A stretch of DNA of 61,691 nt, filler included, from Perkinsus chesapeaki ATCC PRA-425 (GCA_013115145.1; 9 parts of 9 records of this genome joined end to end with filler, not necessarily neighbours in it); one strand, 5' to 3'; positions 13,302 through 59,082 are shown, counted from the whole stretch's first letter. Translations and numbers: made by a program. Notes: generated by a model not told the origin, from the letters alone.

Positions 13302-16300
13302 GTCATCCAGTGATATGTCAATTGTGACTGCGGATAGCAGGAGAGAGCCGATTTCGCCTCTGAACCTTGAACATTGTTCCCGTCTTGTAGATCCGTCGAA
13401 CAGAATGTTTCATGAAGATCGTCGCTTCTTAGTGACGGTAGCTGCTATGACTTGTGCGAGTGTTCCTCATGGATGCAATGACCCTCAATGAGGCTGCGTT
13501 GCTAGACACTATCAGAGACACTATCGGGGGGTATCTCCCGATATGCACCCGCGTGCTCATAGCTAACGTCGATCCGGCTCAGATCCATCCCGCGCAGGAC
13601 GACCAATGTCGATCACCCCCCTACATGCCCCTCCCTCAAGATCGTGATCGCTTGTGGACTTGGGCCTATAGTGCTAGACCGGACCGAAAACTCTTCCTCA
13701 TATGGGAATTAGAAAGCATGGGTGAAAGAGTCGAGGCTTGAGCGACGGGTCCTAGCATTTATTCCCAGCCTAGAAATATCGGGCTGGGGGACTGCTGGCT
13801 AGTAGCCAGTGGATACTATCAGAGAGCACTTCATCAGTTGACGGCCTCCTAACAGTTACAAGTTGACTGTCGATAGCGTGAAACTATTGCTATCATACGA
13901 ACACCACGTCAGCGTGTTCCGTAGAGCACTGGCGCGCGAAATTGAGATTTCGGGAGTGCCACGACGAATATCTTAAATATGTGATGCTTGTTTTGTATTG
14001 TCTTTTGATTGAAGGCATGAACATAACACCAATAACTGCAGAAAAAAGTGACGATTGGCGACTCGCCAATGGCGAGATAGAAAAGGGCAATGAGTATCTT
14101 AACGAGTGCATCTGCACTGCAATGAGCATATCTATTGAACTACTCGTAGATAAGAAACTAGCCGAACTACTCGAAGTAGTTGCGAAGCATCGTCAACAGA
14201 ACTGTGGACTATAGTCAATAGTACAGTTACTCATTGGGATAAACGCATATTCGGTTTAGGCGATCATTGAACTTACAGGTCATACCCGAAGGACAAAATG
14301 ATATCTAAAAAGAGGAAATATTTCGGGCCGGGTCATACCCTCAAAGGGTCTCAAAGGGGATTTCTCCCCTTTGGGAAGAAATCTGAGGGTCACCCTCAAG
14401 TTGGAACTTCCGACTTAGAAGTCAGAAGTCCACCCTTCAGGCTTACCCAGCATTGTAGCATACACGTTCCTCGGTCACAGTATGGCTTGGCAGAGCTCCC
14501 TCTAGCCCAGGGGCAGTCCGCATCCACTTTGCACTCAGGGCTACAAACACATCTCTTCCATTTCCTAGTACGAAAGTAGGAAGTCTAAGAAAGACGGTGC
14601 AGCTTCAACCGAACGCTTGCAGTTTACTCACCCAGCAATTTAGAGCTAAACCATTGGGGCAGGTGCAATTAGTACCTCGGAGGGGCTCGAGATACAAACA
14701 CTTCCTCTCGGGCTTGACATAGTTTTCCGTGTCTGATAATGATAGTGCGGGCTCCAGAGTTTGTGTTATATACAGGAAAGCGAAGTCCACGTCGTGGACT
14801 CCACGAGCATGCACTTACCCGCTTGGAGGGCTCTTGACGTAGAATCTAGCGGGTTGCTGCCAGAGAGCGAGATTATGGCTCTAAAAAAGTCAAGTTACAA
14901 ATCATTCACAACCACAACGCTCTTACTCAGTCATGGGGCCGTCATCGCGGCATGGAGCAATAGGGGTGATCCAACCCAGCAGGATACACAGAACTAGGCG
15001 TGAAACTGTGTACGAGGTCATTCTCACTAATCAAGTGGGATAGAGTCGATCTTGCCGCAAGTTTCTTGCGTGTCACCAACGTTCTTTCTAGTAATGGCGT
15101 CTCTGTGACGCAATTCATGGTGATATGCTAAATGCAATGGAGTTGCACCCGTGCGGTGCAGAGCACCGGTGCAGTGCACATTGGAGATGCAGCCACATTG
15201 CGTGCACTACAGCAATCATGCAGTGGAAAGCGCGAACTGCGCGAGGTGCGGTACTTATACTGCGCTCCGCGCATTTGCACGAGTGCAAATCGCTCTTGCG
15301 CGCACTGCGCGAAATGCGGAGTGCGTTACTCGTTCTTCGGAATACAACGGCATCGTAACGGTGCTCCTGACGCTCCAAGTATCAGCCAGGCTTGTACTAT
15401 GATGTCCAAGCAGGTCAGTAGCTGAGCCTCAGTGAATAGTTCCAGCACGCAGGAGTTTAAGCGTCGTTAGTGGCCGAGCAACGCGTACAAGATGCGAGGG
15501 TATTACGGTTCCATACTTCCACACCTACTGTGATAGGTGAATTTAAAAGTAGAAAAATAAGGTTACGCTTAACGAGGGAAAGATAGTGAAGTCGCGGTTC
15601 CGCGAATATTTCATGAGGTTCGCAAAATACACGGAGGCAAAGTTTGGAAGCTGTACACTAAGGCCCGTATTCCCTTACACAGGTAGCTCAGCTGCCGTAG
15701 CTCAAGTCTGATTTTCCACAGAAAAAAAAGCGGACCCACTCGAAACAGGGCAGTGGGTAATTCAGCCAGACTAACAACTAGGTTCGAACGCGTTACTTCC
15801 GAGTCTTAGATTAGTTATCTTACCACGCAATTCAACTGAGCCACAATATGAGCAGCTCGAAGCCTTCCCATCTACCTTGAGGATGTCGACGCAACTTGTC
15901 CTTGAAGACTTGAAGCTTTGTGGCCATCAGCAAACTGCCTAGTTCCTGTTCTTGGCAAGAACAAGGAGTAGGACTTCTTGTAGCGAATATCAGATCTGTG
16001 ACGAATCATCAGTAGTGATGGGTTATGGGTGATTTAGGGAAGCCTGTAGCCTCTACATTCGATGTGGCCATTGCGCCCACTTGAGACCACCCCAAAAGGT
16101 CTTGAAGCCATAATACTGGTCCCTCTTAAAATGCTTCGAGTTCGAGTCGTATGTGTCGCACATGATGTCTGTCATGTGTCAAGGGATGTCCTCTCCGTGA
16201 AAGGATGCCGCGTCTTTTTGCCGGTCATTGTAGAAGGATAGCTTCTATGACTCGTTATTCTGTGACTTGCAAATATGGAATGTGTATACCGCTGCTGTTT

Positions 16301-16444
16301 TACGTCGCGTGTGTGCATCTCCAGTGTACTACTAGATAACTCAACAACTCCGCTAATCTCAACATCTATTTAATGTTACAGGCTTCATTTGAATGTTATC
16401 GAGTACGCGACTGATCCATGTTATTAAACTGTGCCACGTATGGC

Positions 16445-19400
16445 TTAGGAGCTTTTCAACAAGTCAGCTCGAGTAAGATAACCTTTTCGACCTCTATCAA
16501 GTCTAAAGAATATATCGGTAAGTGTTTCAGAGCAAAGGCCAAGCTGGCCGGAGAACATCTGCAGCTCATGTAGACAAACTTTCCCAGTTGTGTTGAAGTC
16601 GAGTCGCCGAAAACCGGCCTCGATCGTTCCAAAAGCGAGGACTAGTTTGTCGAGAAATTTCTGGCGCAGGCAATCTGAGCTCGTCGAGCGATTCTTGATA
16701 GACTTCGCACTACTAGCTCGAACACGTATAACATCGTCCGGTGGGGAGAGGTTCTGCTCATCTGAGGCAAGAAGCCGCTCAAGCTGCTCGGATCGAGCTT
16801 CTTCGTATGCCAGCCGCCTGAAAAACAATTGTAAACGGAAAAAATATCACCAGTAAGTGAAGAACTGTTATAGAAGAATACTGAAGTACAAAACATAAAT
16901 CGATTAACCGTTTCCTGCACAGTGCAAACCAACTTACTGAATCATTGCCTGCATTGCTTGCTCCATTCTCGTCATTTTCCCGTCCATTTCCTCATTCGCG
17001 TTTTTCAAGCTCTCCAGCCCACCGAACCCGGAATCAATCGCCCGCCAAATCGCCCCGCCTTCGTCCAGGTCGTCACTGCTCTCGAAGATTCTCACATCCA
17101 CCAAACCCTTAACGGACAGTTTTTCAAGATATCTCCCGACTAAAGCAAGAAGCCTGCGTATTCGCCGCACCTGCGCGACATCGTTTTGACTTTGCTCATA
17201 GAGGAATTCAACTTCGCTCATCAAAATCCTCAAATTCTGCGGCAGCAATTCCTGCGTCCACCGAACTCTCTCTCGACCCAACTCAGCTCGGACTTTCTTC
17301 AGCTCGCTTTCGGTGACTGACCGTAGTGCTAGAATCTTGGACTCGTTCTCGCACTTCTGTCTTTTGCAAAACTGCAGCTCGGCTTCTAGGTCTTTTTTGC
17401 TCTCCAGCAGTTCGTTGTAATCAGCATCGAGATTCTTGTATTCCGCCATCGATTCGGCAAGTCTGCCCTCAAATTTACGCGTCAGATCGCGCTCTTTCCT
17501 CAAAAAGGCTTGTTTTAGATCCTGCGAAAGTGTAATAGGATATATCTTATAAAAACGAGTAAATACAGATGGTATATTATAAGATATGAATGTGTATATT
17601 ACTCAATTAGAATCTGAAGTTTACATTCTATAACTAGATCATAAACATAGACTACAAAAGTCAACATATTTTTCGAAAGATTCGTATATGTCGACTTTCG
17701 TAGTCTATATGTCTTATGTTTCGTAACGAAGCAAGAGTTCTATAGAGTTTGGATTTCTCAATTCATCATAAAATTTCAACTTCACGTGAGAGAAAGATGA
17801 TGAAGTAGGTCCGCATCTTCCTGTCACCAACTTCCATCACGGACTTCATGAGACTCGATAAAATCTCCTCGATGTTATTTTCGTGAAAACGTATTAACAC
17901 TATAATACTGACCCGTGCGTGTCGGCTCCACTGAGCCTCGAGCTCTCCGGTTCGGCCATGTGCACGAGTTCGAGCTTCTTCCAACTTCTCATTCAACATT
18001 TCCATGCTGGAAGGAAGTCTCCGTCATTGAAATCTTTTTCTCACTTACTCTTTCTCGAGTCGCCTTACAACAGCTTCCATGTCGTTCGCTGCTTTCTGAC
18101 TATGTGCAATAGCCGTCTCATGCCTGCAGAGAGAATCCATGCTTGAAGCGTGCAAGATGCGAAATATGTGGGCTACTCTTTCTGTTTTCGCCTCAGCATT
18201 TCTTCATGTTCCATGGCTCTCCGAGCGATTTCCTCTTGATGCCTGCTCACTATGAATATCAACATTCCTCACTCCAGCCAGCTCACTCGCGCTCTTTCAT
18301 CTCCAGCATCCTGGCGTGCTCCAATTCCTGCTGATTGAGCCCATTTTCGTGCCTGATAACTCCGTCATACTTCAGATTCTTCCGAAAATCCATCTCACCT
18401 CTCCTCCCATTCTCCCTTCATAGTCGCTAACTCTCCTCTATGTGTCTCCCGTAAACTATTGACATATTCCGCATGCCTGACGAAGCACGACCGTATGACC
18501 TCCCACAGTCGAGCGCATGCTACTGTCGATCCTTCGTCTCTAATAGTTCCTGATGGCCTCTGAGCCTGTCCTTCAGCTCCCGTATGTGCCTGATTGTTCC
18601 GAAATTTCAATCTTCACATTTTTCTCTCTCCTACTTTTCATGTTCTCTCGCGGCTTTCTCATGATTCTCAGTGTGATCTTCCAGTGCCGAACGATGTCTG
18701 AATGAAGTCCCACGTTGGCCTTGTGAATGAAAATCTCTTACGCATCCTGCCACTCCCGGCTGGCTTGCTCCAGCTGTTGCCGATGAGTCTCTCGAAGACT
18801 CCGCAATACCTCTTCATGCCTATAAATTAAGCTAAGACTAGCCACGCGGGCACCCGGCCTACTGAGTCTTCTTTTTCCTCAAAGCAGTTTCGTGTTTCCT
18901 TTGCCACTCCTCTAGTTTCCTCTGGTAACTGAAATCCAACAAATGTTCCCAATTTTTTCCCAGATTTCCCGAAATTTTCCAAATTTTCCAAATTTTTCCG
19001 AATTTTCCCAATTTTTTCCAGATTTTCCGAAGTTTTCCAAATTTTCCAAAATTTTCCCAATTTTTCCCAAAATTTCCCCAATTTTTTCCAGTTTTTTTTA
19101 TTATCTTCGGCTAACAGTCACTCACTTTTCCTGAATCTCTCTCAGAGACCCTTCCCGTTCCGCAGCATGTGACGCCGAGAGATTTCGCAAGGTGGACTCA
19201 TGCCTGAAAATGAAGATTCGAAATATCTGACTTCCGGCCGATTACTCCTCCTCTCTTCGCAGTATCTCCGCCTCCAACAGAGCCTTGTGCGATGCCGTAA
19301 TTCGGTCCAACCTAGTCGACCGTTCCATCACCGGCCAGCACGCGACTCACTCTTCATCCTTTTCCGTTCTATGCCGATTGTGTGCATCACGCAACTTGTC

Positions 19401-22400
19401 CATTTCCGAGCGGTGACTAGGAAATGACGTTCCACACGGCACCAGTCCAATGCCTACCTTGACGCGATCTCGTCGATTTCTCTAACCTTCTCGTTCAGAC
19501 GCGAACGTGACTCGGACAGCTGGCAATAGGGAATTTCTCGCGCGCCAGGAAACCAAGGAAACTGACTTCTCGTGCCAGATCTCCTCGCTCCCTCTCGTGC
19601 TTCTCGCTCATCATCTTAATTGTCATCGTCAACTCGTTGCATTTGTTCGACCACTCCGCCGCCCCCTATGAAATGTTCCAACCAGGGATCGAACCCAGGG
19701 TCTACTTCCTCCCGTAGCAGCTGTGCTTTCTGTCTCTCCGATTCCAGTCGAGCTTTGTAGTCATTTTCCAAAGCGCCCTAAGTCAGGAACTCTGTTAGTC
19801 TTTCCCAGTTGGGCTTTGAAACTCTCAATTCCTCATAGAGCGAGGGTGAACCAGAATTTCATGCAAAAATATCACATTTTTTTGTGGAATTTCCGGAAAA
19901 TTTCTTTCCTCGCCAACAGATCAGGGAGACCCCTTTCACCACTGACATTGAGACCTGTCATTTACGAGTGATCATCCGAGTTTTCTCCTTCCCATCCGCT
20001 TCGTTGGTATAACTAAACCATTTCTATGACAGTGCCGCGATTCTGTTGCTTCGGTATACGCGGTATTGGAGATGGAGAGTCACCACTCATCCTTCCATCA
20101 CAGTGTCCAATGGAGACGGTGATGAGACGTGTATAAGTTGGTATCCTTGATTGTGTGCACGCTGTCTACTTTCTTGGCCAACAATTACTATTTTAAATAC
20201 CACTACTTTACCAGAACCACCCAAAGTGGTTCTTGTTGAGTTGGTTAACCTGTAGCGAGCTCCAGAGGAGTGCCGAATTCTCCCAGAGCTTCTGGGCCAG
20301 TAGGAAATTATTTGCTGTCAAAAATCCTTCTAGGTTAGCTATCCATAAGCTTGAACTTAATTTAATCTAGACGCTTACAAAATCTCCGGCGGACTTACCA
20401 GCTCTTCCAGTTGAAGCTCGAGATTCTTAATTTTCCTAGCAAGCGCATCAGGATCACCGTGCCGACTCTGAAAGGGAGAATGTCACCACCTGCCAGGTCT
20501 CGTATGGGCTAATTTTTCATTAGCGTTTCTGATAAATCTGTAAACCGGATCATGCCCTTAAGTTCAAGACGTGAAATAACATCATCGTTCGATCGCGAGT
20601 CATCTACCGCCTTCTCAAGCCCCCTAAAAGTAAGTTGACATGCCCGCTATGACGACTTAGTCGTCACGACTAGGATAGACTACGGTCAAAGGGGCCGCAA
20701 CAGGAACTACGGGAAGCCTAACAAGCTTCATGGTGTAAACGTAAGCGGCTCGAACAGCTCGACCAGCTACTCATATTTATTTTACGATCAACTCGGTCGT
20801 CGTATCATTAATGGAATTATTCAAAGGTACTAGTTTACCATTCTTTCTAGCTCATCTTCGAGCTCTCTAGTGTGTTTCTCGAGTTCACGTATCTTCCGTT
20901 TCATGTCAGCTGGATCACCGTATTGTGTCTGAGATGACCACAGACAACTGCCTTCCACCACACGATACAAGCCGCTCGAGTTCAGCACAGTCAAAAAGAT
21001 TTATTTGCGCTTCTCCCATAGCTCGAAATTTCATGTCAAGCTGGGATTGGGTTCCAGCAATCTTACCGCTTCTGCTAGTCTCCCCTCGAGATCGCGTATT
21101 TTCCGCCAAAGCTCGGCTGGATCACCGCTGTCGTTCTGAAACAGTACAGCTATCTGCGCCGCCGCATGGGACAAATCCAGCTTCTTTAAAGAGTGATAAT
21201 TGTGTTCTGTTGTCCCTTATTCAAGTTGTGTCATGTCCCATGGCCACCAAAGTACAGGAACAATTCACAGGTGTGCCCAGGAGAATATATGTTCCTCCCG
21301 AAACTGTTGCATGGCTATAACTGCTTAAGTTAGCAATCGAATGCCTATTGCCGGGATTGGGCTAGCCAGTCGGCCGGGCAGTGCCCTACTGGTTAATGTG
21401 CACGTGACGGCATTTCAAAAACAGCATTGGTTTAATCAGTTTGGGCAACCAGCACAGGATAGAATCACAGTGCAGTAAAAAATTACACTGCTGATCTCAA
21501 AGAGAGCTTACCTTCCGCGAGAGCTCATCTTCGAGCTGCTTTATTCGCCTGCTCATCATCTCAGGATCGCCGTATTGTCTCTACAGAGAACAATTCCAAT
21601 ATAATATTTAATCCATATTATTATATTATTCCGAATAATACACTTTATCAGGCTCATGTCAATAACGTTGAAATTACGGCGACTACAAAGCGGGATTATT
21701 ACTGCTCCCTAACAGTAAACAATTTTATATAAATTTTGAAAAGCATATTCATTATAGTTTTAATAAAGTAATTTACAATTTAACACAACTGCTACAATAC
21801 CACCCAATTACCATTCAATCTCTATCTTATGCTCACAGTCTCCATATAAGGAAAATTGACGACAACGAAAGTTTTTACGCAACCGAATGTGAAGTATATT
21901 GTCGAAGTGTAGGGTTGAACGCGGAAATTCTGACGTTTTCGGAATGGAGGTACTTTTTGCGATACAGTGTTTAATATTTTGAAATGCGAGATAAATTATT
22001 TTGTTCCCCTGATCTGATAATTCTCACCAGACGAGAGATATCGTCCTGGAGCTCCTTGTTCTGTCTACTAAGTGATTTCGGATCGCCATACTGCCTCTGG
22101 AATGACAGCAAACAAGACCAGTTGATGAGTCTGTGGTTGATTCGATGTGTGCGACCTACCAAACTAGCCAGCTCCTTTTCCAGCTCCTCAATACGGCGTC
22201 GCGAGGATTCTAGTTCGATCTGATCAAGGGCCGAGACCGGTTATTCTACCAGCTTCTGGCGCAGAAGAAGTATTCGCATCGGACGTTGGAATTGGCGACT
22301 TGGACTCCATGATCAGAGCCATTTGCGTATAACGTCGATACTCCTTGTGAGAAATTCCTCTTATTAATTGTACTTAAGGTTATTGCTTTATTGGTAAAAC

Positions 22401-25434: not shown

Positions 25435-25436
25435 CT

Positions 25437-26568
25437 GAAACTGATAAGCAGAAGACCAATAGTGATCATCAGAAAGAACTAGAAGTAAAACCACCGAGAC
25501 CGCTCAAACCAACGACTTCTATTGATGTATTGAAGGTAGCTAAACGAGCTCGTCAGATATCTAACTTGGAGGGCGGAGCCTTCCAAGGAACTGGTGATCC
25601 TCGTGGGTTTATTGCTATGCGTCGTGAGGTCTTGTCTAAACCGGAGTTTGTGTATGCTACTACTAACGGAGAAGAAGGAGCCGCTATTGAGTACTTTTAT
25701 GTAATGAACAATATCAGCCCAGCCTTACAGCAACAGGTAGCTACTAAATGTACGGTGGATGAGTGCGATAGCTTTGAAGACCGTGTATCTACTATGTGGG
25801 ACTGCTTACGTATCAGTTCCGACTTGAATGACCAGCTCAGCCTCATTCGTAGATGGGAGACTTTACGATGCGCATCGGGTAACAACATTGAGGACTACAT
25901 ATCTCAGATTGAAGGTTTACGTGAACAACTACAAGAACTCCGTAAGATGCCACTAAGCGATGCTGAACTTAGATCCCGGCTATATACCGGCCTTCCTGAT
26001 AGTGGCCGACAGTTCCTCGACTCCTTACCGACTACTGCCGTGGACACTTATAAACATATGCTCTTCGAAGCTCGTAGATGGGCTCAGCTTCATGCACGCT
26101 ACTCTGCGGCCTCACCTACTACTAGCCCGAATAAAACCTTCCGGTCTCAACCACAGTCGACAAGGTCACCACCAACTACTCGAGGAGCAGCACGACGTCA
26201 AGGTAACGTGGCCGAGCTCTTCTATAGCGACATTGATAATACTTATAATCCGGATGCTAAATGTGTATTTGTTAGTGGTATTCCAAGAGAGTGGGACTTT
26301 CGACAAGTCAAAAGCCTTGTCCAAGATCTTCTTGGTGATGAGGTTTCGGCCTATGTGACGATGCTTCCTAGACGCGGTTGTGTATCCTTACGTTTTCAAG
26401 AGCATGCTGATGCACAGAAGTTTATTGAAACTTCGAATGGTGTTCGGTTTAGTGGACGTTTGCTTCGTAGTCGCTTTGATAAGTATGAACGGCCCTCCCC
26501 GTCATCAACTACTCCTGAAACGGGGGAGCCTGTGGTTCTTACTATGGAGACTACTTTCGCTACATCTC
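25437..26568 (+). mobile_element. Retrotransposon gag-like ORF with a C-terminal RRM; open across the whole contig
   Basis: No stop from 25437 to the contig end; LIRRWETLRCASGNNIEDYISQIEGLREQL...LSDAELRSRLYTGLP resembles the gag capsid C-terminal region; CVFVSGI and RGCVSLRF are RNP2/RNP1-like. Confidence 0.72.
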
Positions 26569-34851: not shown

Positions 34852-35127
34852 TCAACAATGTTGATTCAACATACTTCCCTTATCATCATCATCACTAAGG
34901 CTCACATCAGCTTCGGGAATTGGCACATTTGGTGACTTCGGTGGGTCATCGAACATCCCACGATATCTTCTACCGTATTGCGGAGCGGTGTCATCCTCCA
35001 CACCTTCAGATGGTTGTTTTTCCTTCTTATCTTTCTTATCTTTCTTTTTCAGAGTTCTCAAGGCTTCTGTCGGGTTGCCTAGTAGACCAACAACAGCAAT
35101 GATGGCTAAACCGTGAACAAGACGCAT
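34852..35127 (-). CDS. Small secreted-type protein (signal peptide, basic then acidic tail)
   Basis: MRLVHGLAIIAVVGLLGNPTEA-LRTLKKKDKK... Confidence 0.55.
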   Translation of the reverse strand: MRLVHGLAIIAVVGLLGNPTEALRTLKKKDKKDKKEKQPSEGVEDDTAPQYGRRYRGMFDDPPKSPNVPIPEADVSLSDDDDKGSMLNQHC

Positions 35128-37560: not shown

Positions 37561-37563
37561 TAA

Positions 37564-42968: not shown

Positions 42969-45006
42969 GGGTGATGCGAAAAAAAGGGCCCATGCCTCAT
43001 ATTTTTTTGGCGCGTGAGAGTTACGAGTGAAGTAAGGTACCCACTTGAAGCTCTTGGTGAACTCTCTCTAATGCCTCATGAACCATTGTGATATTCGAAC
43101 TAGGCTCTGAGTAGTGGTTGAACAAAAAAATCGTTACATAGAGAAATGTGCTATAGTAAGAATTTCATTGAATTATAATAACCGTTATTATAATTCAATG
43201 AAATTCTTACTATAGTAGATCGGGATCATGTGGTAGAACCCGTGTACCTCGGTTCGTTCGTCCATTAAATGGACTCCATTTTTGTTTCTAAAAGACCGTG
43301 AGAGATAAACGAAGTCGTTTTTCCACTGAAGACTCACGATTCACGAGACTCCGTGACTGACCAGGTCAGGTTGTTCACCGGTGGTCCAGACCTGCGCAAG
43401 TTTGGTTCCCAAAGGGAGCAATAAAGTCTTACTGGCTAAGTGCACAATCTTTAGGATGAAATTCAACTGGAGCAATCAATGTATGAAAGGTTGTGTACGA
43501 ATCGCGAATGTACGAACCGAGCACAAACTCAGCGAAATTGCAAGAAAAGATGAAACGCACATGTATAAGAAAGAGTAGCCCGAATAGGACGTGTACTAAA
43601 ACAATTTGGACGAAACAATCAAAAATTATTATAGTGTCATTAAGATAATTTCCGATGAAGCACAATATGCATGTAACGACCGTGTACGAAGATCGGTACA
43701 CGGTGAACCGCGGTGGAAGTTTTGTGAGTGTACGGTGTGGTTCAACCGTGGAACCAAGGGTCCCATTTGAGAGTGTCCAATACTCAGTATGTGAGCAATA
43801 CTATTGGTGTTAACGTGTAATACACATTCTGTGATACACAATAATATTGTGTTATGCTGTATAACTTACGCGGCATGACCAAGTTTTGATTATAGGCACA
43901 ACTTAGTAAGTTGTGCGTATAATCAAACTGCTTGATCTAAACATAAGTTGAACTTATAAATCTCTATAAATCCCTATAAATCTCCACAGTTCACCTGAAA
44001 TGCTCTGGTTGAACATTGTGAGAGGTTCACAATGTGAAGCGTACAGAATAACATCGGCCTGCTCACTGTGCGAGGCCGCTACACAGTTCATCCGAGTTCT
44101 CTGTGACAGCTGAAGTCAGCTATACCTCGCTGAAAGACGATGCCGTGCAACAGCAGCTGTCAATATCGGTGATCGAAAGTTAGCTTCGCTTTTCGTCTCA
44201 TCACGAGAACCCGACCTTGATTGACCGATGTACTGTAAAGAAGTTTCATCCTAACTTATTTTTCTCAACGAATCCATCATTCGCATCATCGGATAATCTG
44301 ATTCGGATTAGCAATGCTAATCCGAATCAGATTAACATGGCATGTATCCTTTAGAAGGCATCATGAATCATGATTCATGATATAACGCCAGCAATCTCGA
44401 CCTCAATGTAAGCGGTATATATACATCATGTATAATACATGTGGACCACATGTATTATACATGTGGACCACACGATGTGCTTGTCATTCATTATTCTTCT
44501 TACAGACCTTCTAAGAGTGTTCATAGCTCAAAGCTGGAGGTTGGAGGCTTCAACCGTCAAGCGCATCCGCGGCGGATGATCCGCCCTCCGATACACTGTG
44601 TTGGGAAGGAGATCGATGGTGCGAGGGGCTTCGACAAAAAGGTTGGACGTGGATGACACACTATATACTGGAACACGTACAATAACGTACAGGATTGGAT
44701 GCCGAAATTATTGGGCTGGGAGATAATCAAGCGGGGACAAGAGTTTAACACATTCGGCATTGATGTAGGAGAATCTTGCTATCTTACGATCCTTTTATAC
44801 CACTAGATTCTCTTTTATCATTAAGCTATCGTGCTAAAGTAACTTTAGTGCAAGCTCAATCGGAGTCAACAAGGTCAATCGAAGAGGGACATTGCTGACA
44901 CGATTGGGCGGTCAAAACTCGACACAACTGGGTGATGGCGCGCAAGCCTAAGTAATCCGTGTTAAGCCAAATCTCGAAATCTTGCTTTCTCATTATTCTT
45001 AAATAG

Positions 45007-45488
45007 TGTTGTGTGAATTGTCTTGCTTATAGTGCTAGAAGATCGAGAGTATTTTCCACGTCCTCGACGTCGACCTGCAGTTGGTAGCAGTGTACAGATG
45101 TATCGTGAAGATAAAGTGGGTGAATCCCACTATGGGGACACCAAATACAATGTTGTGAACTATGATGGGATGACTGCAACTTTAAGACCCATTGATGGTG
45201 GAGAATCTCCACTGGAGATGAGAAGTTCGAGCATTTCCGCAATCTACGAGTTTGCTATTAATTATCATTGATACTTTTATTTTCTGTATTTTGTATCCTG
45301 GTGAGCAGCTGACAGGGGGGCATGTTGTGTGAATTGTGTCATCTTGTCACGTTTGTGTGCTAAGCTCTGTCTCCCTAGCTCACGCTACTCAGAAAGTACT
45401 ATAAAGTTGTATTAAAGCTTTTATATATTTTAAATGACTCCTGATAACCTTGCGTTAACTCAGGGAACGGCTACTAGCAGTTCTAACA
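45007..45488 (+). mobile_element. Internally deleted LTR retrotransposon: 15-nt 5' LTR stub, integrase C-terminus, PPT, 166-bp 3' LTR, TSD AATAG
   Basis: TGTTGTGTGAATTGT at 45007 and 45323; GGGGGGCA before 45323; LTR ends ...TAACA at 45488; AATAG at 45002-45006 and 45489-45493. Confidence 0.82.
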
Positions 45489-48109
45489 AATAGATTATAG
45501 CTAATAGATCATAGCTGACATAGCAGAATTTCTGAATCTTATTCTGTTCTGTATACACCAATCATCAGCAGCCGTACTGGTATCTTGCGTTTATCCAAAT
45601 TCGTTAACATCCGCGCAAGCAGCACGCACGCGCATAGCTATTGAATAACCGTTATTGAATAACCCACGCCACAGCGCTAGCTGCTAACTCGCAGCTGTCA
45701 AGGTGCCCAGGAGGCACAGGACGGAGACACTAGTCCCGCCCCCTGTGGCCGTAGCCACGGGCTCAGTTCTTCAAAACCCATCCTCACTACCGGAAATCAC
45801 GCACACGAAACCAGGTGCACTCGGCCATGTGACATGGTTCATGTAGGTCGCAGGCCAGTTTGGGTGCATCTGGCCCCATGTGCGTGGACTATCGACTGAG
45901 GTGCACCGACCGAAACCGTGAATTAACACGCAAGAGCCGTCGCCGACGGCCCATCGCGGCACAGCATCACAGGTCGACTCAACCTAGTTGAGTTCATGCT
46001 GGGGGGAGCTCAGAATCCGAGACTCAGATCCTTTTTGCCCGTCTTGGTGCCTCCGGGAAATAGGGGAAACATTGGAATACATGGCAGCGCGAGCCGCCAA
46101 TAGTGAACCGGAAACGCACGAGCGCGAATCTCTCGTGTCCCCTGGAGGGAGCCTCCCTCAGGGAGGGGGTAGGCAAATAGGTGGTCACGAGTCGTGAATA
46201 ACGACCTAGTCGTGCAACAGCGCTAGCTCACATCTCGGACACACGAGGATGATCGCGGAAGAATTCGTGACCGCGGTTGAACTAGGAAACCCGAACACGA
46301 CATGCAAGAAAACTTAACCCCATCCAAGCGGACTCGTGAATACTCCCTCATCAATGTTTCCCAATGATGAGTATTCTCGGTTGCAGCTCGAGTTTTATCA
46401 AGCTACATAAGGTGGTACTACCACCGTGGTAGGTTTCCTATATATTCTTTTCTTTATAGTTGATTTCACCACTCGTACTGTACATTGTCCATTCTCTCCC
46501 ATTTATTCCATATTAGTGGAGTTTGGTTTCCATTAAGTGGGATATATTGGAAAGGTTCACATGACACCATGAAGCACGAGTTCAACATGGTTGGTAATCC
46601 TACATCAACTCAATGCTTATCCCGCTTTGTGATTTGCGAATGATTTTGAATCTAATTTGTTGATGGACAATTATTTGGTATAACTTACCCGTGTATTCTC
46701 CACTGTAAATCACACACTTGAAGCGGAAGAAACCAAAGCACCGCCTGATCACCCGAGCTGTCGAAAGAGGTGCCTCCGAATATTCAGACTTGAAGCATGC
46801 CCTCCGAACAATCTCAGAAGATGCATGTTGCCAAGTTGAAGTTGTCCTGGTTCGCAAGCCGCTGAAGCCGCTCAGCGCGGTTACGGTAGAGAAGCTGGTT
46901 CCGCGTCACCAAGTAGCGGTGCAGCAAACGTCAGCAAGTTTGACAGTGGGCGACTGAATACCGTTTCTTGTCGTACTATACAAGTGCTATGAGCGCCGGA
47001 GCTAAGCGACTCCTAGAAGAGGGCCACAAGCTTGTTGATTGAGACGGGCCCCGACGACTATTGAAAGCCTCGTGAAGAGTATCACGCCGGACTCGGGCGT
47101 GATACTCTCGTTACTCGGGCGGCCCGAGTGCGGACCTATCCCTCCATACCCGACGAGAAAGACTTTCTCAGAAAGTCCTGATGCCCTCAGGTTGAGGGTA
47201 CTGAGTAAGTCCAACAGTAGCAACATTGATCTAAAACTGCTGGCGTATAGTAGTACTACTGTAGTACAGAGAGTAGCGGCTTCGTACAACTACAACCGGG
47301 AAGGTGGTTGAGGTCGTCGACGATGAAAACGAATTTCATGACCAAGATCGCAGTTATCATTATGGAGGTCAGTACGAAGAAAAAGGCGCCTTCAACAAAT
47401 GGTCGGCACAGTTGAGGTCCTTTTGGCTGCCTCCGCATCCTACCTCTAGGGCAAGGGCTGGGCAGATGCCCTCACGTTTTGAGGTGCTATTTGATTGCTT
47501 CACGTTCCACGCTAGCCTAGCGTCGTAATGGTTCAAGCATTTCGCTTGGCTTCGCCACTAGCGATTGGCAAGTGCTTATCTCACTGGGAAATTCTCCAAT
47601 GAACTGACGCGCAGTGAATACTGAAGAGGCGGAACTCAGGAGTTTTGGGGTGAAACCACTGATTGTGACACGATCATTGTGTCAGTCTGTCACTGTAAGA
47701 CGTGGCACGTCCTGGTGTTTCCCGCAGCCGTATCAAGCGGCCCGCATGAGCTCAAATCAAGACTTCGCAGGAAATAAAATGACGATAAACAGTTAGAAGA
47801 ATAGCAAATGTCTCAGGTATAGTAACAGAGACAAGACAATGTTCAAGACAGTAGCTTTCGTATACATTTGGTAATGATAATATCATTCCAAAAGTCATAG
47901 TTGATGTCGCTATGATATCAACTACGGACTCCCCACCACCGTACATCATCAGCTGCTAAGACGGCGCATATATACCATCCATTTGCATCTCTTAACATCA
48001 CGCCTTGGAGGACATTTATGACAGTCCAGGACATGGAAGCGTCAGTGTCCGTAACCGTGGGGAACAGTACACATATAGAGAGCAGAGTCATACGAAGTAC
48101 CTTCATCAA

Positions 48110-48928
48110 TTACGGCTTCACATTGAAGATTAGATCAACAAAGGGGTAGGATGCATAAGCTGGTTCGAAGTCCAGAAGCTGCGCAGAAGCGCGTAGACCA
48201 GCGAATGCATGCCAAGCAAAAAGGTCATTATCAACTGTGCCTAAGCTCGCATCGAAGGCCATATTTCCCCTATATATGCCTCTCCTTTCTATGTGGCTTC
48301 CGACAGAAACGCTCAAACCCATGTCGAAATCAACGCCCGAATGATACTGACCATGCAAGGTGTAATTGTCGTTAAGTAGATCATGACCAAAACCACGCAC
48401 TGTCACATTGGTCGAGATCGTTGATGGTATGGTGTACTGCTTAGTTGCTGGATCATACTTCCCTCTGCCACCGCCTGACATACAGGCACGAACGATACCG
48501 CGTATGCTACCATAGGACAACGTCTGATCGAACAAGTCGGCACAACCATAGGAATAACCGGTCATATTGATTGTGTCAGCGTTACTGAACCTGCTGGTAA
48601 TTCCCAGAAGAACTGTCTTAGTGTTGTCATTCACATCGTAGAGGTACAAGTCGAGACTGATACTGACTGTATCACTGATGGTGTAAGCACCGACCACACA
48701 AAACGGTTCGACAAGGCTTCTCTTGGTTGGGTGACAATCCGTCGGGTAAGTCCAGGAAGTGGAGTTCCCCAAAGTTGATGATATCATGGGATTATGTTCC
48801 AGGGAGACGTCGACCACTCTTGTATTTTCTGTAATTGTGGCTGATGATATGTACTTATTAATGTCAGATGATTCACCAATCGCGCGCACGGTGATAACCA
48901 ATAAGAAAACATCGAGGAATTGATGCAT
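48110..48928 (-). CDS. Intronless secreted beta-rich protein, paralog 1 (probable start MHQFLDVFLLV at 48928)
   Basis: Signal-peptide-like N-terminus; aligns end to end with 54287-55117; ends AYASYPFVDLIFNVKP*. Confidence 0.85.
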   Translation of the reverse strand: MHQFLDVFLLVITVRAIGESSDINKYISSATITENTRVVDVSLEHNPMISSTLGNSTSWTYPTDCHPTKRSLVEPFCVVGAYTISDTVSISLDLYLYDVNDNTKTVLLGITSRFSNADTINMTGYSYGCADLFDQTLSYGSIRGIVRACMSGGGRGKYDPATKQYTIPSTISTNVTVRGFGHDLLNDNYTLHGQYHSGVDFDMGLSVSVGSHIERRGIYRGNMAFDASLGTVDNDLFAWHAFAGLRASAQLLDFEPAYASYPFVDLIFNVKP

Positions 48929-50649
48929 TATAGGGGACAAGACTCTTCTGAAATCAATGAAAGAGAGCAAGTGCACTGCAGAAAAATAATTACAGATTCC
49001 GGATTTGCTGGAAGGTAAATGAGCAGATGAAGTTGAGCCCAATCCATGGAAGGCCTCTAAGATCGTTCCTCTTCGATAAATCGTGGACCCGATCACCAAA
49101 CCACGCTAATCGTAGTACGACAGCAACAAAAGATATTTTAATAGGAGACGTAGCAAAAGAAAGGACTAATTTAATAGTACCTAACGTTATTCACGACTCG
49201 TCAGAGCAATCGTAATGACGAGCTACGTGTCGTACTGTACGACTTGTGCGTTAGCATCTAGTTACTAGATCTTAGTATGAATCTTGAGTGAGCCAGCCAA
49301 CTTCGATTTACCATTGAACTTGATGTCAAGGATACTAACGTACCGTTCACAAAATCGACGGATGAGGCCAGCTTTATTCAACCTGCCACTGTTTGGCAGA
49401 CAGCTAGAATCTCTGAGGTGCAAGTCTCGGTTACATCATAGATGACGAATCTGATCAAACCTCGGTTGCTGATGTATAGCCTCTTCTCCTAACTATCATA
49501 GGAGTAGGTTCTCATCACATCACCCCAGCAAACGTACCCAACGCTACGTCGTCGGAGCCTCTACATCAAATAAGTCAAAGACAATCGCCCGAGGTATAGC
49601 TCCCATAGACATACCTAAGCCTTTGAAAAATGTCTTTGAGCCTCCCTGGCTGCTCTGCCACATCGAAGGTCGTCCGGAGTTAAGGCCTACGTCAAATATT
49701 GCCACCCTGGGCCCACCTAACTAATCAGTAATGCAGATTGGTGATAATCAAGACTACCCGGCCAGGTGAACCGACTGGTAAAGCGAGCTGGGTCGATCCG
49801 TGAGATCTTCATTGACAACTGATTCTAATAGCTAAGCAATCCCAGTGGCAATTGAAAATCACTTTGGAAACCGGTCACGGTGACAGTCTCACCATGCTTG
49901 TACGCACACTAGACAAGGGTCTGTGCACCGATAACTTTGACAGCAAGTGGGAGGGGGTGATATTACTGGGGTTTATGAAGTGTTAAAAAGATAACTCACC
50001 GGTAGCCCTGGTATTCACAAATAGCAAGTCACTATTTTATCTGATCAGAAGAATAAACATGCTTTCGTAGCCGGTTTCGTAATTGCTCTTTTTAATGGCC
50101 GAGACTGTCCAAGACTGTTGGTTTTGCATCACGAACTTCCTTCCCTCAACGAGGGTATGCAATTTCCAGGGCGTTTACGCTTCGAGGCCCTCTCGGTAGA
50201 TCTTCCGAAGATCTACTCGAGGCCCACGAAGATCATCTTCATAAAATACCCCTCAAATCATCCAGGACAAGTTCCCACATATGCTTTCAGATCTATTGAC
50301 TATACTCGGTTCTTGCCGTAAAGATGTACGATAACTCGTCGTCGGCGTTGGGTCTCACTAGACCCGCGGTGATTAGCAATGTTATGCAGCTGTTATTGTA
50401 TACATCTGTTACAGTGTTATACATCGCTGGTTCACTAATTGAGTCAACTTATAGCTAGGCAGGATATAATGACTTTGACAGAGCCTCTGAGCCCTGCTCA
50501 GGACGAGAGGCATCTCTAATCGTAAGGCTTGTTCAAAGTTGCGCCTTATATGTATTTGTAGGATGCGTACACTTCGTTCGATGGACTGATCAACTCAACC
50601 CACTGTGCTATGAAACTGTCGCGTTAATTTTTCGGTTCTGATACCTACA

Positions 50650-53603: not shown

Positions 53604-54286
53604 AGCTCAACTACCCATGGCAATGATCTTGTTGTTGATGTGAGACCTTCCGCGTTACCAGTTCGGTATAATACAGCACCTCCAAACTAACTTAGAACAT
53701 CACGTTTTTGTGACCATTCTCTGCCAGATTTGCGACTCTGCGCCCCAAACTCAGAGAGCCTCGTTCTAATATGGGTTCCAAAATACCACCGAAGTTTCAG
53801 CGTCTAACACCTACTGGTTATATATAGACATATAGCACATATGGACATATAGCCTCAGAGGCTATATGTCTCCTGAATGCACTCGCCTACATGTAACTCA
53901 ACAGAAGAAGAGGAGAAGCTGATGTGACATCGGCCCTACGAAATTGACGAAGAATCATATTCAACAAAGCAGGAGTTATTCGCGCGGAATGGAGCAAATA
54001 CGAGGCGCGTCAATCGTCAAATCGAATACGAAATACGTCACAATTGCCTCTAAGTTGCAAGTATTCGGAGGGTGGGGCTCAGTCGTTTGGCTGACGATCA
54101 ACCAAGTATAACACATAAAATGTCAAGACTAATGATAAGCCTCATTGAAGGCTTCGTTCATAGCAATCTGTTCTAGAACGGGGTTGTGATGCAGCACCCC
54201 ACAACAAAGCATTTACATTCTCATATGAGCCTCTTCGGGCCTGGGATTGATGTGACCGTAGAGAGTATCAGGCATTCGTTGGCTGA

Positions 54287-55117
54287 TTAGGGCTTCACAT
54301 TCAATATAACGTCGACAAATGGGTAGGATGCGTAAGCCGGCCTGAAGTCCAAAAGCTGCGCGGAAGAGCTTACACCAGCGAATGTATGCCAAGCAAAGAG
54401 GTTATTAGCAACTGTACTAAAGCTCGCACCAAAGTTGAGGTTACCAGCATAAAGACCCTCTTTCTTCATTTGGCTCCCGACGGAGGCGTTCATTCCCAAA
54501 CCGAAGTCACCTCCGGAGTAATAATATCCCGTCACTGTGTACTTATCATTTAATAGATCGCGACCGAAGCCACGAAGTATCACATTTGTCGAAATGTTTG
54601 ATAGTATGGTGAACTGCTTAGTTACCGGATTATATTTCCCTGTGCCACCGCCTGACATACAGGCATGAACAATAGCACGTAGGCTACCATAGGACAACGT
54701 CTGATCGACCAAGTCAGCACAGCCACTGGCACGGCTGCTCAAAGCGGCTGCACTACCATCCTTGAACCAAGCGGTGATTCCGAGAAGAACAGTTTTAGTG
54801 TTGTCGTTCGCATCGTAAATGTACAAGTCGAGGTCGATGCTAACAGAACCACTGGTGGTGTAGGTGCCGACTACACAATACTGCTCCAGGAACCTCCTTC
54901 GAGTTGGTGAACAACCCACCGGGTAAGTGAAGGATGTCGCATTCCCCGAGGACGACTGGAGTCTGCGGTTATGCTTCATTGTGATGTCGACCACTTTCGT
55001 GTGCTCTGTGATCGTGAACAATGATTTATACTTGCCAATGTCGAAAGGCTCATCAACCATACCCGCGGAGATAACCGTGAAGCAGATGGGGAAGAGAAAC
55101 ACCATGACGAACATCAT
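54287..55117 (-). CDS. Intronless secreted beta-rich protein, paralog 2
   Basis: MMFVMVFLFPICFTVISA signal-peptide-like start; shares GCADL.DQTLSYGS, ACMSGGG.GKY.P and FAWH.FAG with paralog 1. Confidence 0.87.
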   Translation of the reverse strand: MMFVMVFLFPICFTVISAGMVDEPFDIGKYKSLFTITEHTKVVDITMKHNRRLQSSSGNATSFTYPVGCSPTRRRFLEQYCVVGTYTTSGSVSIDLDLYIYDANDNTKTVLLGITAWFKDGSAAALSSRASGCADLVDQTLSYGSLRAIVHACMSGGGTGKYNPVTKQFTILSNISTNVILRGFGRDLLNDKYTVTGYYYSGGDFGLGMNASVGSQMKKEGLYAGNLNFGASFSTVANNLFAWHTFAGVSSSAQLLDFRPAYASYPFVDVILNVKP

Positions 55118-56731
55118 GGCGAATGATGTTGGACTGAGCTTACAAAGGTTAAGAGAAGCTCCCTAGGCTTCCTACACTGGAATAAGCCAAGCCTTGGCTG
55201 CCAAGGCATACGAGACTAGTCAAGACTAACTCCTGAGAGTCTCTCAGGAGAGCTACGTCAGTGAACATCCCTGAGAGCTCAGCAGGACTCACTATATACT
55301 GAGGCAATGGGTCAATACAAACTGGAGGAGGTTTGTAAATGCTCAAAATCAGTACAATTTATTGTGCTACCATGTTGCGCATGCGTGCACATGTTGCACC
55401 GCGAAGGCGTAGAACTGTCTACATCTTACGTTTGATGGATGTGAACCATCTGAGATTAACATTCACATAGACCATAAATCAATCATTGCTTACAAATCTT
55501 TATACGAACAGTTATTGTCCTAACAGCAATCTTATTCAGAGTTTATAACGACAGTATCCAACAAACTCGCGAAAGTTTGTGCCATCGCTTTCCAGAGGAG
55601 CGTTGACGCGACGCGCCCTGTGGGGCGAGGTTTCCGAAGTTGTTGCTTGCTCTTCGTTCACAAGGACAAATGCAAGGTGAGAAGGGTGTCAACAGATGCT
55701 TCTTATAACTCACGTTTCGCTCGCAAGAGAATTAGGTGTGTACGCATGTACAGTGGAGCGGGGGCGCATAACGACTTGTTGTTATTCGATGACAAAAACT
55801 GACAACCTTACCTTTCGAGTGGACCCACGTTGTGGCCTCGGCAAGGGTTATTTGATCGTCTTACCACTTGTGTAGGGCTGCTGACGCCAAGGGAAACATC
55901 TTTAAAAGAGATGATTCTCTGCGAAGGCCTCGCAGGGGAGCTAGGGCAAATACCTGACAAGCCTTTGACTCTGCGAAGTTCATAGTTCACATGGGTAGCC
56001 AAACCTGAGCGGCTCAGGCTCAGGCTGAGCCCCCAGCCCAACTCATTTCATGTCCAGCCTGGACAGTCCAGGTTTAGAGACCATGGATCAGTACGCCGCG
56101 TACTGTTACAGTACTACTGTACGCGTTGAACTCAACGCAGACTGAGAAATACTGGAAGACATAAATAATGAAGTCGCCTATGCACAGGAGAATGGGAAAT
56201 GGGAAACAGTTAACCCGAAGCCCGGACACGGTCCAGAGGTTGAACTGTTCCCGAGTTTGGGGCTACCCAAGCCCAGGATTAGGAATATTTTGACACATTC
56301 GCAATAATCAGGAAGTAAGCGAACAATAGAGAATCGCCATTAGCTATTAGCTATATACTCCCAGGTCAAGAGAGCAGGGCTCGTGGCAAGAGCCTCTTGC
56401 TATCTAGCGAATTCCAAACATTCCTAACTCTTGGGTAAAGTAGGTTCAAACTCCTCTAGGAGGAGTCCTCCTCCTCCTAATGAGTTTCGCGAGTGTAGCG
56501 GCTGTGAAATCCCATAAGAGTTTTGGGAGTTGCGCACACGGACTATTGATAACACAAAATCTGTACAAGTGGAGACAAGAATTGTGTAACGCTGAAGCGC
56601 TCAAACTTAGCTTATACTAACACACCTGGAGTGTTTGATAAAATTACCGATGGGTACGGCTCGTAACCGAGCTGAGCCTTAGGAAATTAGTCACAAATGG
56701 AGACATAGGTATCATATGATATGATTCATAT

Positions 56732-56804
56732 CAGTGGCGTAGCTGGGGGGGCGCGGGGGGGGGGTGGGGGGGCCCGGGGGGGGGGGGGGGCCCCCCCGGG
56801 GGCC

Positions 56805-56842
<38 letters not shown>

Positions 56843-56863
56843 GGGGGGGGGTGTTTGGGCGTG
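56732..56863 (+). mobile_element. Possible DNA-transposon/MITE terminus (CAGTGGCGTAGCT + G-rich), truncated by the contig end
   Basis: CAGTGGCG followed by G/C runs resembles termini of hAT-type non-autonomous elements; the poly-G part is probably low-quality sequence. Confidence 0.4.
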
Positions 56864-56963: not shown

Positions 56964-57018
56964 AATACATAGCTACTCACGCGCGCTCGCCAGTCACCGC
57001 GCTACGATAGAGCCCTCA

Positions 57019-59082
57019 TCACATCTTCCTGCAACAAACGTTGATGCGCCTTTTCAGCTGGCCAACCCTTCCTTCCGCGGTTCCATTACTCTGTGGGCTC
57101 CAGGCCGGCGTCGTCAAGTAAGAGACCCCACACTCGAGCAGGTGCTTGCGGAAAACGGACGAGTCGACGGCATTGTCGGAAACAACCGTTAGCGGTAGAC
57201 CGAACAGGGATATCCACCGATCCCACAGAGCCATTATAGTGTGCTCCCCAGAAGTAGATGCCACCGGCACTGCCACACAGAATCCAGTAGCCAAGTCGGT
57301 AACCACCAGGAAGGCTTTGTGGCTCGGATCCCTAGCGCTCATCCAGTCCGGGTCAGGGAAGGCGTGATCAATACAGACATGTTTGAGCCTCTGGTCGGGA
57401 TCCACTAAGCCTCTCGGAACCCTGGGGGCGGTTAGACTTGCCAGCCGGCCCGCACGACGGTTCTCCATACAGACATCACACCTCTGGATCCACTCCTTAC
57501 GGTCACGCCCGATACCGGGCCACCACACGGACCTGTCCATGGCTCCCTTCATAGACGGGGTACCCTGGTGCACCGCAAGTTCATGGAAGGTGAAGAGAAA
57601 CCATGTACGCAGATCCCAGTCCGCGTCGCAATTGATGGACACCACTTCCCCGAAGGCGTCGAGTTTTCCCTGGGGAACCGCGGGAACCGCTACGCCACCG
57701 TTCTCATCCACGTCACCGAACACGCATACACATCCACCCACTAGAGCGACCAGTCCCAGTTTGTACGCCTCCGCAGCCGGACCAGCTAGAACCCCGTCTG
57801 GCCGTTGAGCCTTCAGGGCTGACACCCACTTTGCCAAGGGGAGTCCATGTAAGATAGTCGAGGAATCAACTCCTTGTAGCTCCAGGAGCCGTTGCCGTAC
57901 CTCTTCGTTCTCGAGAAACGTCTGGGGGCTGAACTGGCTGGATCCATCTCCCCTGGGTTCATTCCGCGGGTCAAAGGCCGAACCTCGGGTCACCCAAAGG
58001 ACCACAGGTGAATCACGTCCTTCAGGAAGGTACTTCCTGCCTCCGTCCAGCAAGCGACTCAGCGCGTCAGCGAAACCATTCTGCTTGCCACCCACGTGCT
58101 TGAACGTGATGTCCGCGTCACCGAACTCGTACAACCATGTCAGCCAGGTGAGCCACCGCTTACTCTGTCTCGCGTCCGGCGCGAAGCGTGTCACCTCGAA
58201 CCGGCCTATTAGTTTGCCGAGCGAGGAGGTACTATCGGTCAACAGGAGAATCCTGCCGACGTTTCCACTCCCCTTGTAGACAACCTTGTCGTCGGAGTCG
58301 GTGTAGTCATCCAAAAGCCGGGCGTATGTGGTGGTCGAGAGGATCAGCTGTCGCCACTCCTTGAGACCGTGGCATGCCGCATAGAGCTCCTTGTCAGCGA
58401 TGTCGTACCTTCGCTCGTGACGGCTCCACTTGTGAGTCCACACCGCGATGAGGCGACCATTATCGGATACCCAATCCGCTCCCAACTGGACACCTTCCTC
58501 CATGGCAGCGAGTAAGGTGCTCCTTTGCAGCCGAAAGAGTACCGCGGCCCCAGCGTGCGGTGACGCATCAACCATGAGCAAGAACTGAAGGTCCCGAAAC
58601 TCGTCTTCTGGCCTGTGGAAGTGCATCACCCCGCTTCCCATAGAATCGAGGAGCTCCTTCCAGGAGCGGGCGTGCTCGGCCGTCCAATTGATCTTGTAGT
58701 TACCTCTCGCGCCCTTCGCCACGCACTCACCAATGAGATCAGTAAAAGGGGCCAGCCGATGACTTAGAGTGTTAGCTGCCTGTTGCCCGCCTAGCTCCGG
58801 GTTCCACAGGGACTTGCAAAACTGTAGGACCCCAATCTTAGACCTCAGGCCTCTCAGAGTCGTGGGCGGAGAACCAAGTGCCTCTCGGGCGGCCGATACA
58901 CTCTTCGGTGAGACGGAGTAGACGCCCTGCCGTAGCTGGAACCCTAGGAAGTCTATCTCCTTGGAAGGGCCCTTACGTTTTCTCTCCGGGGCCTGAGCAC
59001 CAACGAGTTCCAGTGCGAAGGTTATCCGGTCCATCATCTCCTTCACCTCCTCGGGAGTGCGGGCCGCACTGTGCGGCCCCAA
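57019..59082 (-). CDS. Gypsy RT C-terminus + RNase H + integrase (downstream frame after the insertion)
   Basis: RTPEEVKE...IDFLGF, VDASPH, KELYAACHGL, GKQNGFADALSR, SNGTAEGRVGQLK. Confidence 0.9.
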   Translation of the reverse strand: MGPHSAARTPEEVKEMMDRITFALELVGAQAPERKRKGPSKEIDFLGFQLRQGVYSVSPKSVSAAREALGSPPTTLRGLRSKIGVLQFCKSLWNPELGGQQAANTLSHRLAPFTDLIGECVAKGARGNYKINWTAEHARSWKELLDSMGSGVMHFHRPEDEFRDLQFLLMVDASPHAGAAVLFRLQRSTLLAAMEEGVQLGADWVSDNGRLIAVWTHKWSRHERRYDIADKELYAACHGLKEWRQLILSTTTYARLLDDYTDSDDKVVYKGSGNVGRILLLTDSTSSLGKLIGRFEVTRFAPDARQSKRWLTWLTWLYEFGDADITFKHVGGKQNGFADALSRLLDGGRKYLPEGRDSPVVLWVTRGSAFDPRNEPRGDGSSQFSPQTFLENEEVRQRLLELQGVDSSTILHGLPLAKWVSALKAQRPDGVLAGPAAEAYKLGLVALVGGCVCVFGDVDENGGVAVPAVPQGKLDAFGEVVSINCDADWDLRTWFLFTFHELAVHQGTPSMKGAMDRSVWWPGIGRDRKEWIQRCDVCMENRRAGRLASLTAPRVPRGLVDPDQRLKHVCIDHAFPDPDWMSARDPSHKAFLVVTDLATGFCVAVPVASTSGEHTIMALWDRWISLFGLPLTVVSDNAVDSSVFRKHLLECGVSYLTTPAWSPQSNGTAEGRVGQLKRRINVCCRKM

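Follow-up and report, generated by a model that had tools for sequence, protein, structure and literature searches.

A recurrent 22-nt scar

The window, meaning the whole stretch of 61,691 nucleotides analysed here, comes from the shellfish parasite Perkinsus chesapeaki ATCC PRA-425 (GCA_013115145.1), and proteins with 99.6-100% identity to its open reading frames bear that species name. It consists of nine contigs separated by a 100-nt spacer, N44-TTAATTAATTAA-N44, which occurs at eight places (the first at 13202-13301) and carries stop codons in every frame; that two contigs meet at a spacer has no meaning. Six of the contigs contain 22-nt sequences built from an 8-mer, termed X, according to a single rule: X1-7, then the reverse complement of X1-8, then X2-8. 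The origin of these sequences, here called scars, is the subject of this report, and excision of a hAT-type transposon is the favored explanation.

An N-skipping scan with this rule finds 18 exact sites, compared to 0.0 in a control of 30 local shuffles. A first-pass annotation made from the sequence alone had reported 11, and every one of them follows the rule: 14785-14806 (X = GTCCACGA), 20651-20672 (GACGACTA), 27125-27146 (AGAACGAC), 43260-43281 (GTCCATTT), 44360-44381 (ATCATGAT), 46411-46432 (GGTGGTAG), 55185-55206 (AGCCAAGG), 56051-56072 (TGTCCAGG), 56100-56121 (GTACTGTA), 56711-56732 (ATCATATC), and 59056-59077 (AGTGCGGC). Seven had been missed, at 14055-14076 (TTGGCGAG), 34851-34872 (ATCAACAT), 44420-44441 (TATACATG, on which a later complex event at 44435-44481 encroaches), 44564-44585 (CATCCGCC), 45198-45219 (GTGGAGAT), 46145-46166 (GAGGGAGG), and 47155-47176 (GAGAAAGT). 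The earlier observation is thus confirmed and extended. X differs at every scar, with a G+C content about equal to that of the flanks, and exact sites are absent from 51 kb of DNA in 17 unrelated metagenome loci.

The pattern is strict in both length and trimming. With one base trimmed per side, exact counts are 1 at n = 6 (0.37 expected), 0 at n = 7, 18 at n = 8, and 0 at n = 9-12, which is the sharp peak at eight that the first-pass annotation had anticipated. The other 15 trims at n = 8 give 0-2 exact sites each; stray matches of the 1/2 and 2/2 trims lie within a poly-G tract, and all strays that were located fall in AT-rich or poly-G DNA. The untrimmed pattern has no sites in the window at n = 8 or at n = 5. 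X1-7 followed directly by X2-8, lacking the inverted filler, occurs 42 times compared to 16 expected, an excess due to simple tandem repeats.

Imperfect copies accompany the exact ones. The scan yields five sites with one mismatch, one of them in a poly-G end, and 16 with two, of which two are in AT-rich introns; the shuffles give 0.2 and 1.1, respectively. Parsimony over the three copies of X, applied to the 45.7 kb of the seven contigs that are not AT-rich, finds 18, 7, 17, and 33 sites with zero, one, two, and three substitutions, where shuffles predict 0, 0, 0.17, and 6.5, although some imperfect matches are shifted readings of a neighboring scar. There are therefore 24 further sites with one or two substitutions compared to 0.17 expected. 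The seven decayed scars with one substitution, each 22 nt, start at 13795, 15049, 37989, 44288, 47661, 56379, and 56451. The 17 candidates with two start at 14400, 15682, 20282, 44460, 45643, 45936, 45971, 46008, 46184, 47177, 47246, 47679, 47727, 49256, 49872, 56004, and 56704, the last being a shifted reading of 56711. Of the six near matches listed in the first-pass annotation, all given there as having one or two mismatches, five stand as described; the sixth, at 15682, has three mismatches against the middle copy and two substitutions by parsimony. The succession of 18, 7, 17, and about 26 excess sites perhaps records a recent burst over an older wave, the numbers being small.

The scars are unevenly distributed. 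The gene-dense first contig of 13.2 kb holds none of the 18 exact scars (P = 0.01 if uniform). Contig 8 has 25 scars with at most two mismatches in 13.8 kb, about one per 0.5 kb, together with a scar-free gap of 5.3 kb (P = 0.0001) that contains one of two intact DUF6740 genes. Such avoidance of gene-dense DNA would follow from selection and equally from target choice, but not easily from an artefact. Together with the decay series, it is evidence of a process long at work in vivo. The two DUF6740 paralogues (48113-49105 and 54290-55162) are about 60% identical and come from a family that is expanded in P. chesapeaki; they are closely surrounded by scars, with none inside. No paralogous stretches spanning a scar were found within the window.

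The ancestral allele in two retrotransposons

Two scars lie within coding sequence that has homologues in P. marinus. The scar at 59056 interrupts a Ty3/gypsy gag-pol gene on the minus strand of contig 9 (57022-61649), just past the reverse transcriptase motif YMDD. Two P. marinus polyproteins, P0008 and P0009, follow one frame as far as 59070-59079 and a second one from 59064-59037 onward, so that the frame switches inside the scar; no other break occurs in the 4.6 kb of this gene. Measured from the first residue of YMDD (Y) to that of KGP (K), the distance is 128 nt in the window and 114 in each of P0008 and P0009.

The scar at 27125 lies near the 3' end of pol in a Ty3/gypsy long terminal repeat (LTR) retrotransposon on the minus strand of contig 4 (26742-32876). 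Here, the frame of the P. marinus homologue P0037 changes at 27141/27132, and the distance between the anchors HEIVRG and KETHY is 92 nt in the window compared to 78 in P0037. Within and around one copy of X, the window encodes GVVLRLV, identical in P. marinus, where P. olseni reads GVVLKLV. At both testable sites, the scar is a 14-nt insertion relative to P. marinus proteins, and the ancestral allele is therefore plain X, as the first-pass annotation had proposed.

The contig 4 element is young, and in it CCCH zinc fingers precede the protease. Its 278-nt LTRs (TG...CA) differ at two positions (99.3% identity), and since it carries a scar, the process has acted recently and not just long ago. 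In the annotation of both pol genes (P0007, P0036), a false intron bridges the scar. The annotated protein of the contig 4 element also shifts frame near 31966/31882 and 31451/31334, away from the 22-mer scars.

Palindrome geometry

Each scar can be viewed as two overlapping hairpins, a left one of X1-7 with the reverse complement of X1-8 and a right one of that reverse complement with X2-8, which share the inverted copy of X. Each has a one-base apex, a geometry in excess across the window. Palindromes with arms of at least 7 nt and a one-base loop number 66, compared to 3.3 expected, while zero-base loops (4 compared to 2.5) and two-base loops (7 compared to 3.3) are few. Loops of three and five bases are likewise raised because they are the same palindromes read minus their inner pairs.

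Footprints of hAT elements are expected to have a one-base apex and an 8-bp duplication, and both are found here, the duplication being deduced from the scars alone. The short, heterogeneous P (palindromic) additions of 1-3 nt that classical end joining of the Ac/Ds type should give as main products are not. The classic short Ac-type footprint, X1-7, two P bases, and X2-8, occurs once compared to 0.9 expected, and the remaining short classes are at or near background, simple tandem 6-mers excepted.

Other hairpin-forming geometries fit poorly. RAG and Transib nick exactly at the border and leave an apex without an unpaired base, which corresponds to the untrimmed pattern that is missing here and to zero-base loops that are at background. 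Dada and P-element geometries are rejected on apex and length.

Variants with longer arms

The variants were drawn from 12 one-base-loop palindromes scoring at least 9, of which two are exact scars. They carry P arms well beyond 8 nt, about five having arms of 16-21 nt. Arms of 18-21 nt with the partner half of X (one mismatch) at the arm end occur around 43906, 44314, and 44445. The first of these (43879-43927, apex 43906) is one-sided, with a 21-nt arm and its partner X1-7 lying 20 nt to the left, and has a junction homology of 3-4 nt. The second (44294-44338, apex 44314) is likewise one-sided and has a 20-nt arm, with its partner X2-8 lying 18 nt to the right and the junction at TTA. Its arm reproduces the older scar at 44288 with that scar's substitution already present, and the two events are therefore ordered in vivo.

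Two variants, centered at 47092 and 50206, retain the full reverse complement of X1-8 on both ends and are joined farther out through filler. The former (47076-47128) has a left arm of 16-17 nt and 4-5 nt of filler. The latter (50196-50241) has a 10-nt filler at 50217-50226, which repeats 9 nt from just upstream (50182-50190). Among the remainder, judged by eye like the variants above, 55240 reads as a scar minus one base and 44456 as part of the 44445 tangle. The palindromes at 43183, 53857, and 30881 are without a partner half, and the last, in a pol frame, sits at the edge of the homologue alignment.

Later events overlap the final bases of earlier scars at 44288-44481 and 56704-56863, and a candidate element end lies inside one scar. 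Scars may attract reinsertion.

A candidate element end

The candidate is the left end of a terminal-inverted-repeat element on the plus strand at 56732-56863, cut by the contig end. It begins with CAGTGGCGTAGC, continues into G/C runs, and is preceded by the 8-mer ATTCATAT; its first base is the last base of the scar at 56711. Its 19-nt end motif was found in 17 metagenome loci. In five of these (L001, L002, L008, L010, and L016), which represent three distinct insertions in eukaryotic metagenome DNA, a partner end was identified, along with an 8-bp duplication whose copies differ by 0-1 mismatch. The elements are miniature inverted-repeat transposable elements of 115-239 bp with CAGTGGCGTAGC ends, and other duplication lengths fit worse. 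L005 has a partner end without a duplication, L003 is apparently a chance match in coding sequence, and the rest lack a good partner. The end motif has no match in viral contigs, and its 12-nt form has none in the literature. The end of an element with an 8-bp duplication is therefore probably present at 56732. CAG ends are hAT-like, and the element is a candidate member of that superfamily.

No paper on Perkinsus hAT elements was found. In P. marinus, Merlin-related open reading frames (ORFs) have been described from a family with 8-9-bp duplications, and the copies are presented without terminal inverted repeats or duplications having been found (PMC8101967). Dada elements, kin of hAT and MuDR, are described there as duplicating 6-7 bp at RNA genes (PMC3706591).

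Proposed mechanism

It is fairly likely that the 22-mers, as 14-base insertions into a plain 8-base site, were left by the excision of a cut-and-paste transposon of hAT type, with its hairpin-capped donor ends opened well off the tip and annealed through the duplicated 8-mer. Insertion would have duplicated X, consistent with the peak at n = 8. At excision, a cut one base into the flank would leave each flank sealed as a hairpin with X1-7 folded on its complement. The tips would be the complement of X8 on the left and of X1 on the right, as is known for hAT elements and as the observed one-base apex suggests. Each hairpin would then be opened at least 8 bases from its tip, with a choice of strand that leaves a 3' tail. 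Opening away from the tip is proposed because of the variants with 16-21-nt arms and the two sites that keep the full 8 nt on both ends.

The left tail, the reverse complement of X1-8, could pair with X1-8 of the right tail over 8 bp irrespective of what X is, whereupon longer flaps would be trimmed, gaps filled, and the strands ligated. Because X1-7, inverted X, and X2-8 would result regardless of nick position, the product would have a fixed length. An alternative register, pairing X2-7 over 6 bp, would restore plain X and hence be undetectable. The 8-bp register is the more stable at 18 of 18 sites, by a mean of 2.6 kcal/mol, because it is longer. Precise excisions and deletions leave no visible trace in a single genome.

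The uniformity of the scars suggests that hairpin-capped breaks are rejoined in an unusual manner. The first-pass annotation had set microhomology annealing against the classical route of non-homologous end joining (NHEJ). If loss of NHEJ was meant, that is not supported: the relative P. marinus is scored in a table of repair genes as having Ku70, Ku80, Lig4, Mre11, Rad50, and XPF and as lacking Rad52 (PMC6635534, Table S1). The table is coarse, scoring Toxoplasma Ku80 as absent though the accompanying text says it is retained, and it does not list Artemis. With Ku70, Ku80, and Lig4 all scored present, loss of these core NHEJ genes is rejected for P. marinus. A weak or missing tip nuclease of the Artemis/Pso2 type is, as a guess, the likelier reason for off-tip opening than loss of Ku or ligase IV. 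Artemis-deficient cells are reported to make longer P additions (PMC2193825), and yeast Pso2 mutants to show altered Ds repair (cited in PMC5873905). A stronger proposal gives Perkinsus a repair route of its own for such breaks, in which Ku and ligase IV are kept, hairpins are never clipped at the tip, and each excision has its two ends paired by way of the target duplication in inverted form, giving one fixed 14-nt scar; this is nearly as easy to believe as to doubt, with doubt slightly ahead.

Comparison with known systems

Hairpins on the flanks, opened by host enzymes, are attributed to hAT, Transib, RAG, and MULE transposases (PMC5499845). Among the closest known systems is Ac/Ds in plants, S. 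cerevisiae, and Candida albicans, for which an 8-bp duplication, flank hairpins, and palindromic P insertions centered on the complement of the element-adjacent base are described (PMC5873905, PMC1978519), with cleavage placed at the flanking nucleotide in the latter account. Microhomology is given for 88-89% of joints in S. cerevisiae, where P arms reach up to 20 nt, and for between 85% and almost 100% of those in Arabidopsis (PMC5873905, PMC1978519). The Ac/Ds products are heterogeneous, however, with 28 types among 128 C. albicans clones and a longest P of 3 nt (same sources). In the window, by contrast, nearly every detectable scar is the one sequence-independent 14-nt addition, and the 2-nt Ac-type filler does not exceed background.

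V(D)J coding joints of Artemis-deficient cells resemble the proposal in their off-apex hairpin opening and long P additions on full-length flanks, but these are described as 1-7 nt and variable (PMC2193825), whereas the duplication at the scars would supply a fixed annealing register. V(D)J joints vary because RAG coding ends share no common duplicated 8-mer. The MULE Muta1 likewise leaves flank hairpins and uses the target duplication as repair homology; its excision in yeast is reported as more than 90% precise, keeping one copy of the duplication (PMC5499845), while the scars keep the inverted register. The chemistry matches hAT footprints, and long P arms and microhomology have precedents in yeast and Arabidopsis (PMC5873905). 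The difference is that a single sequence-independent product accounts for nearly every visible scar, with a density in natural DNA of up to one per 0.5 kb. The scar was not found in the Perkinsus or excision-footprint literature searched, although this very product may already have been published among the minor footprint classes. To judge from the title of a 1998 paper by Colot and colleagues, Ascot-1 of Ascobolus leaves hAT footprints that are non-random and parallel those of V(D)J joining.

Weighing the explanations

Excision of a hAT-type element followed by annealing accounts for the length of eight, the one-base apex, and the plain ancestral X, and the first-pass annotation, which proposed it, was largely right on geometry and ancestral allele. 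Several observations weigh against this explanation. A transposase domain is missing from 215 ORFs of the window, comprising 28 of 42 long ORFs and 189 of 191 ORFs of at least 62 aa from five contigs, sets that overlap; contigs 1, 4, 7, and 9 were covered by long ORFs only or, in the case of contig 7, by six frames. Neither a hAT nor any other transposase appears in 89 ORFs of 16 motif-bearing loci. A search of the window for complete elements with both ends and an 8-bp duplication gave only AT-rich chance pairs, and no filled/empty allele pair was seen for the scars. A target preference of the Ac/hobo/Hermes type, T2/A7, is weak (14 of 36 half-sites, P = 0.07). The variants were parsed by eye, and two long palindromes have no detectable partner half: a perfect one with 32-nt arms and a one-base apex at 43151-43215, and one with a 13-nt arm at 53844-53870. 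To these may be added the Ku70, Ku80, and Lig4 listed for P. marinus (PMC6635534) and the heterogeneous, mostly short footprints described for known hAT elements (PMC5873905).

The main rival to the hairpin-opening step, and one that sequence alone cannot tell apart from it, keeps the same hAT-type excision with the hairpins left unopened. A replication or repair polymerase would round the left tip, copy the reverse complement of X1-8, and use the 8-base homology to change templates to the right end, which would yield the same 22-mer, with late or failed switches giving the long-arm variants. The two partnerless palindromes and the templated-looking filler at 50217-50226 fit such a run, but the two-sided variants (47076-47128, 50196-50241) are simpler as two opened tails, and this route is considered rather unlikely. 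It is unlikely, too, that the element belonged to another group of DDE transposons that duplicates 8 bp, whether MULE, Merlin, or one without a name, with repair as in the annealing proposal, although no hAT gene was seen among the window ORFs. Matches are strictly at n = 8, with none at 7, 9, or 10, and the sole element end in the window starts with CAG, which is hAT-like. MULEs have in their favor the flank hairpins of Muta1 and duplications of 8-10 bp, and against them its precise excision in yeast (PMC5499845). Merlin-related ORFs (PMC8101967) and Dada elements (PMC3706591) are reported from P. marinus, but Merlin termini are GG and the P. marinus copies are described without inverted repeats or duplications, and the 6-7 bp given for Dada at RNA genes is too short for n = 8.

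Two explanations would dispense with a transposon. Short-range template switching at replication, in which a strand is copied, switched, and returned to so as to insert a short inverted copy, is able in principle to write the pattern and would suit the missing transposase. It gives no reason, however, for a single length and offset (18 sites at n = 8 trimmed 1/1, none at n = 7 or 9-12), the excess of one-base apices looks like chemistry, and the X sequences have nothing in common; it is very improbable. A library or assembly artefact, such as tagmentation or fold-back chimeras, might be suspected in an assembly fragmented into short contigs, but would be hardly credible given the graded series of excess sites (7 with one change, 17 with two, and about 26 with three), the palindrome at 44314 that copied the already substituted scar at 44288, and the avoidance of the gene-dense first contig and of the 5.3-kb gap in contig 8.

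Other features of the window

The start of contig 1 (1-1070) has minus-strand frames that resemble, by eye, the end of a non-LTR retrotransposon. An array of approximately 10-nt TTTTCCAAAT-like units occupies 18936-19111, inside a coiled-coil gene region. A 377-aa open frame at 25437-26567 fills a 1.1-kb contig and bears a weak likeness to the gag of the contig 4 element, along with a weak RRM match. The 1.9-kb contig at 40987-42868 is of very low G+C, perhaps organellar, and gave no Pfam matches in six frames with table 4.

Significance

Excision footprints are normally too varied for genome counting, while a rule of one line suffices to locate a fixed, sequence-independent scar. Each scar gives the target site of a past insertion and is datable by comparison of its three copies, and turnover, target choice, and selection against insertions are therefore measurable without a surviving element. 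The 14-nt frameshifts also mislead gene callers.

The scars suggest that an alveolate with apparently retained core NHEJ genes repairs hairpins without opening their tips, and bear on how hairpin ends are handled outside the Artemis/Pso2 systems. If the stronger proposal of a distinct repair route is true, the genome would hold a countable, datable ledger of transposon visits that far outnumber resident elements. Excision would then act as a one-way ratchet, adding palindromic DNA and frameshifting retrotransposons.

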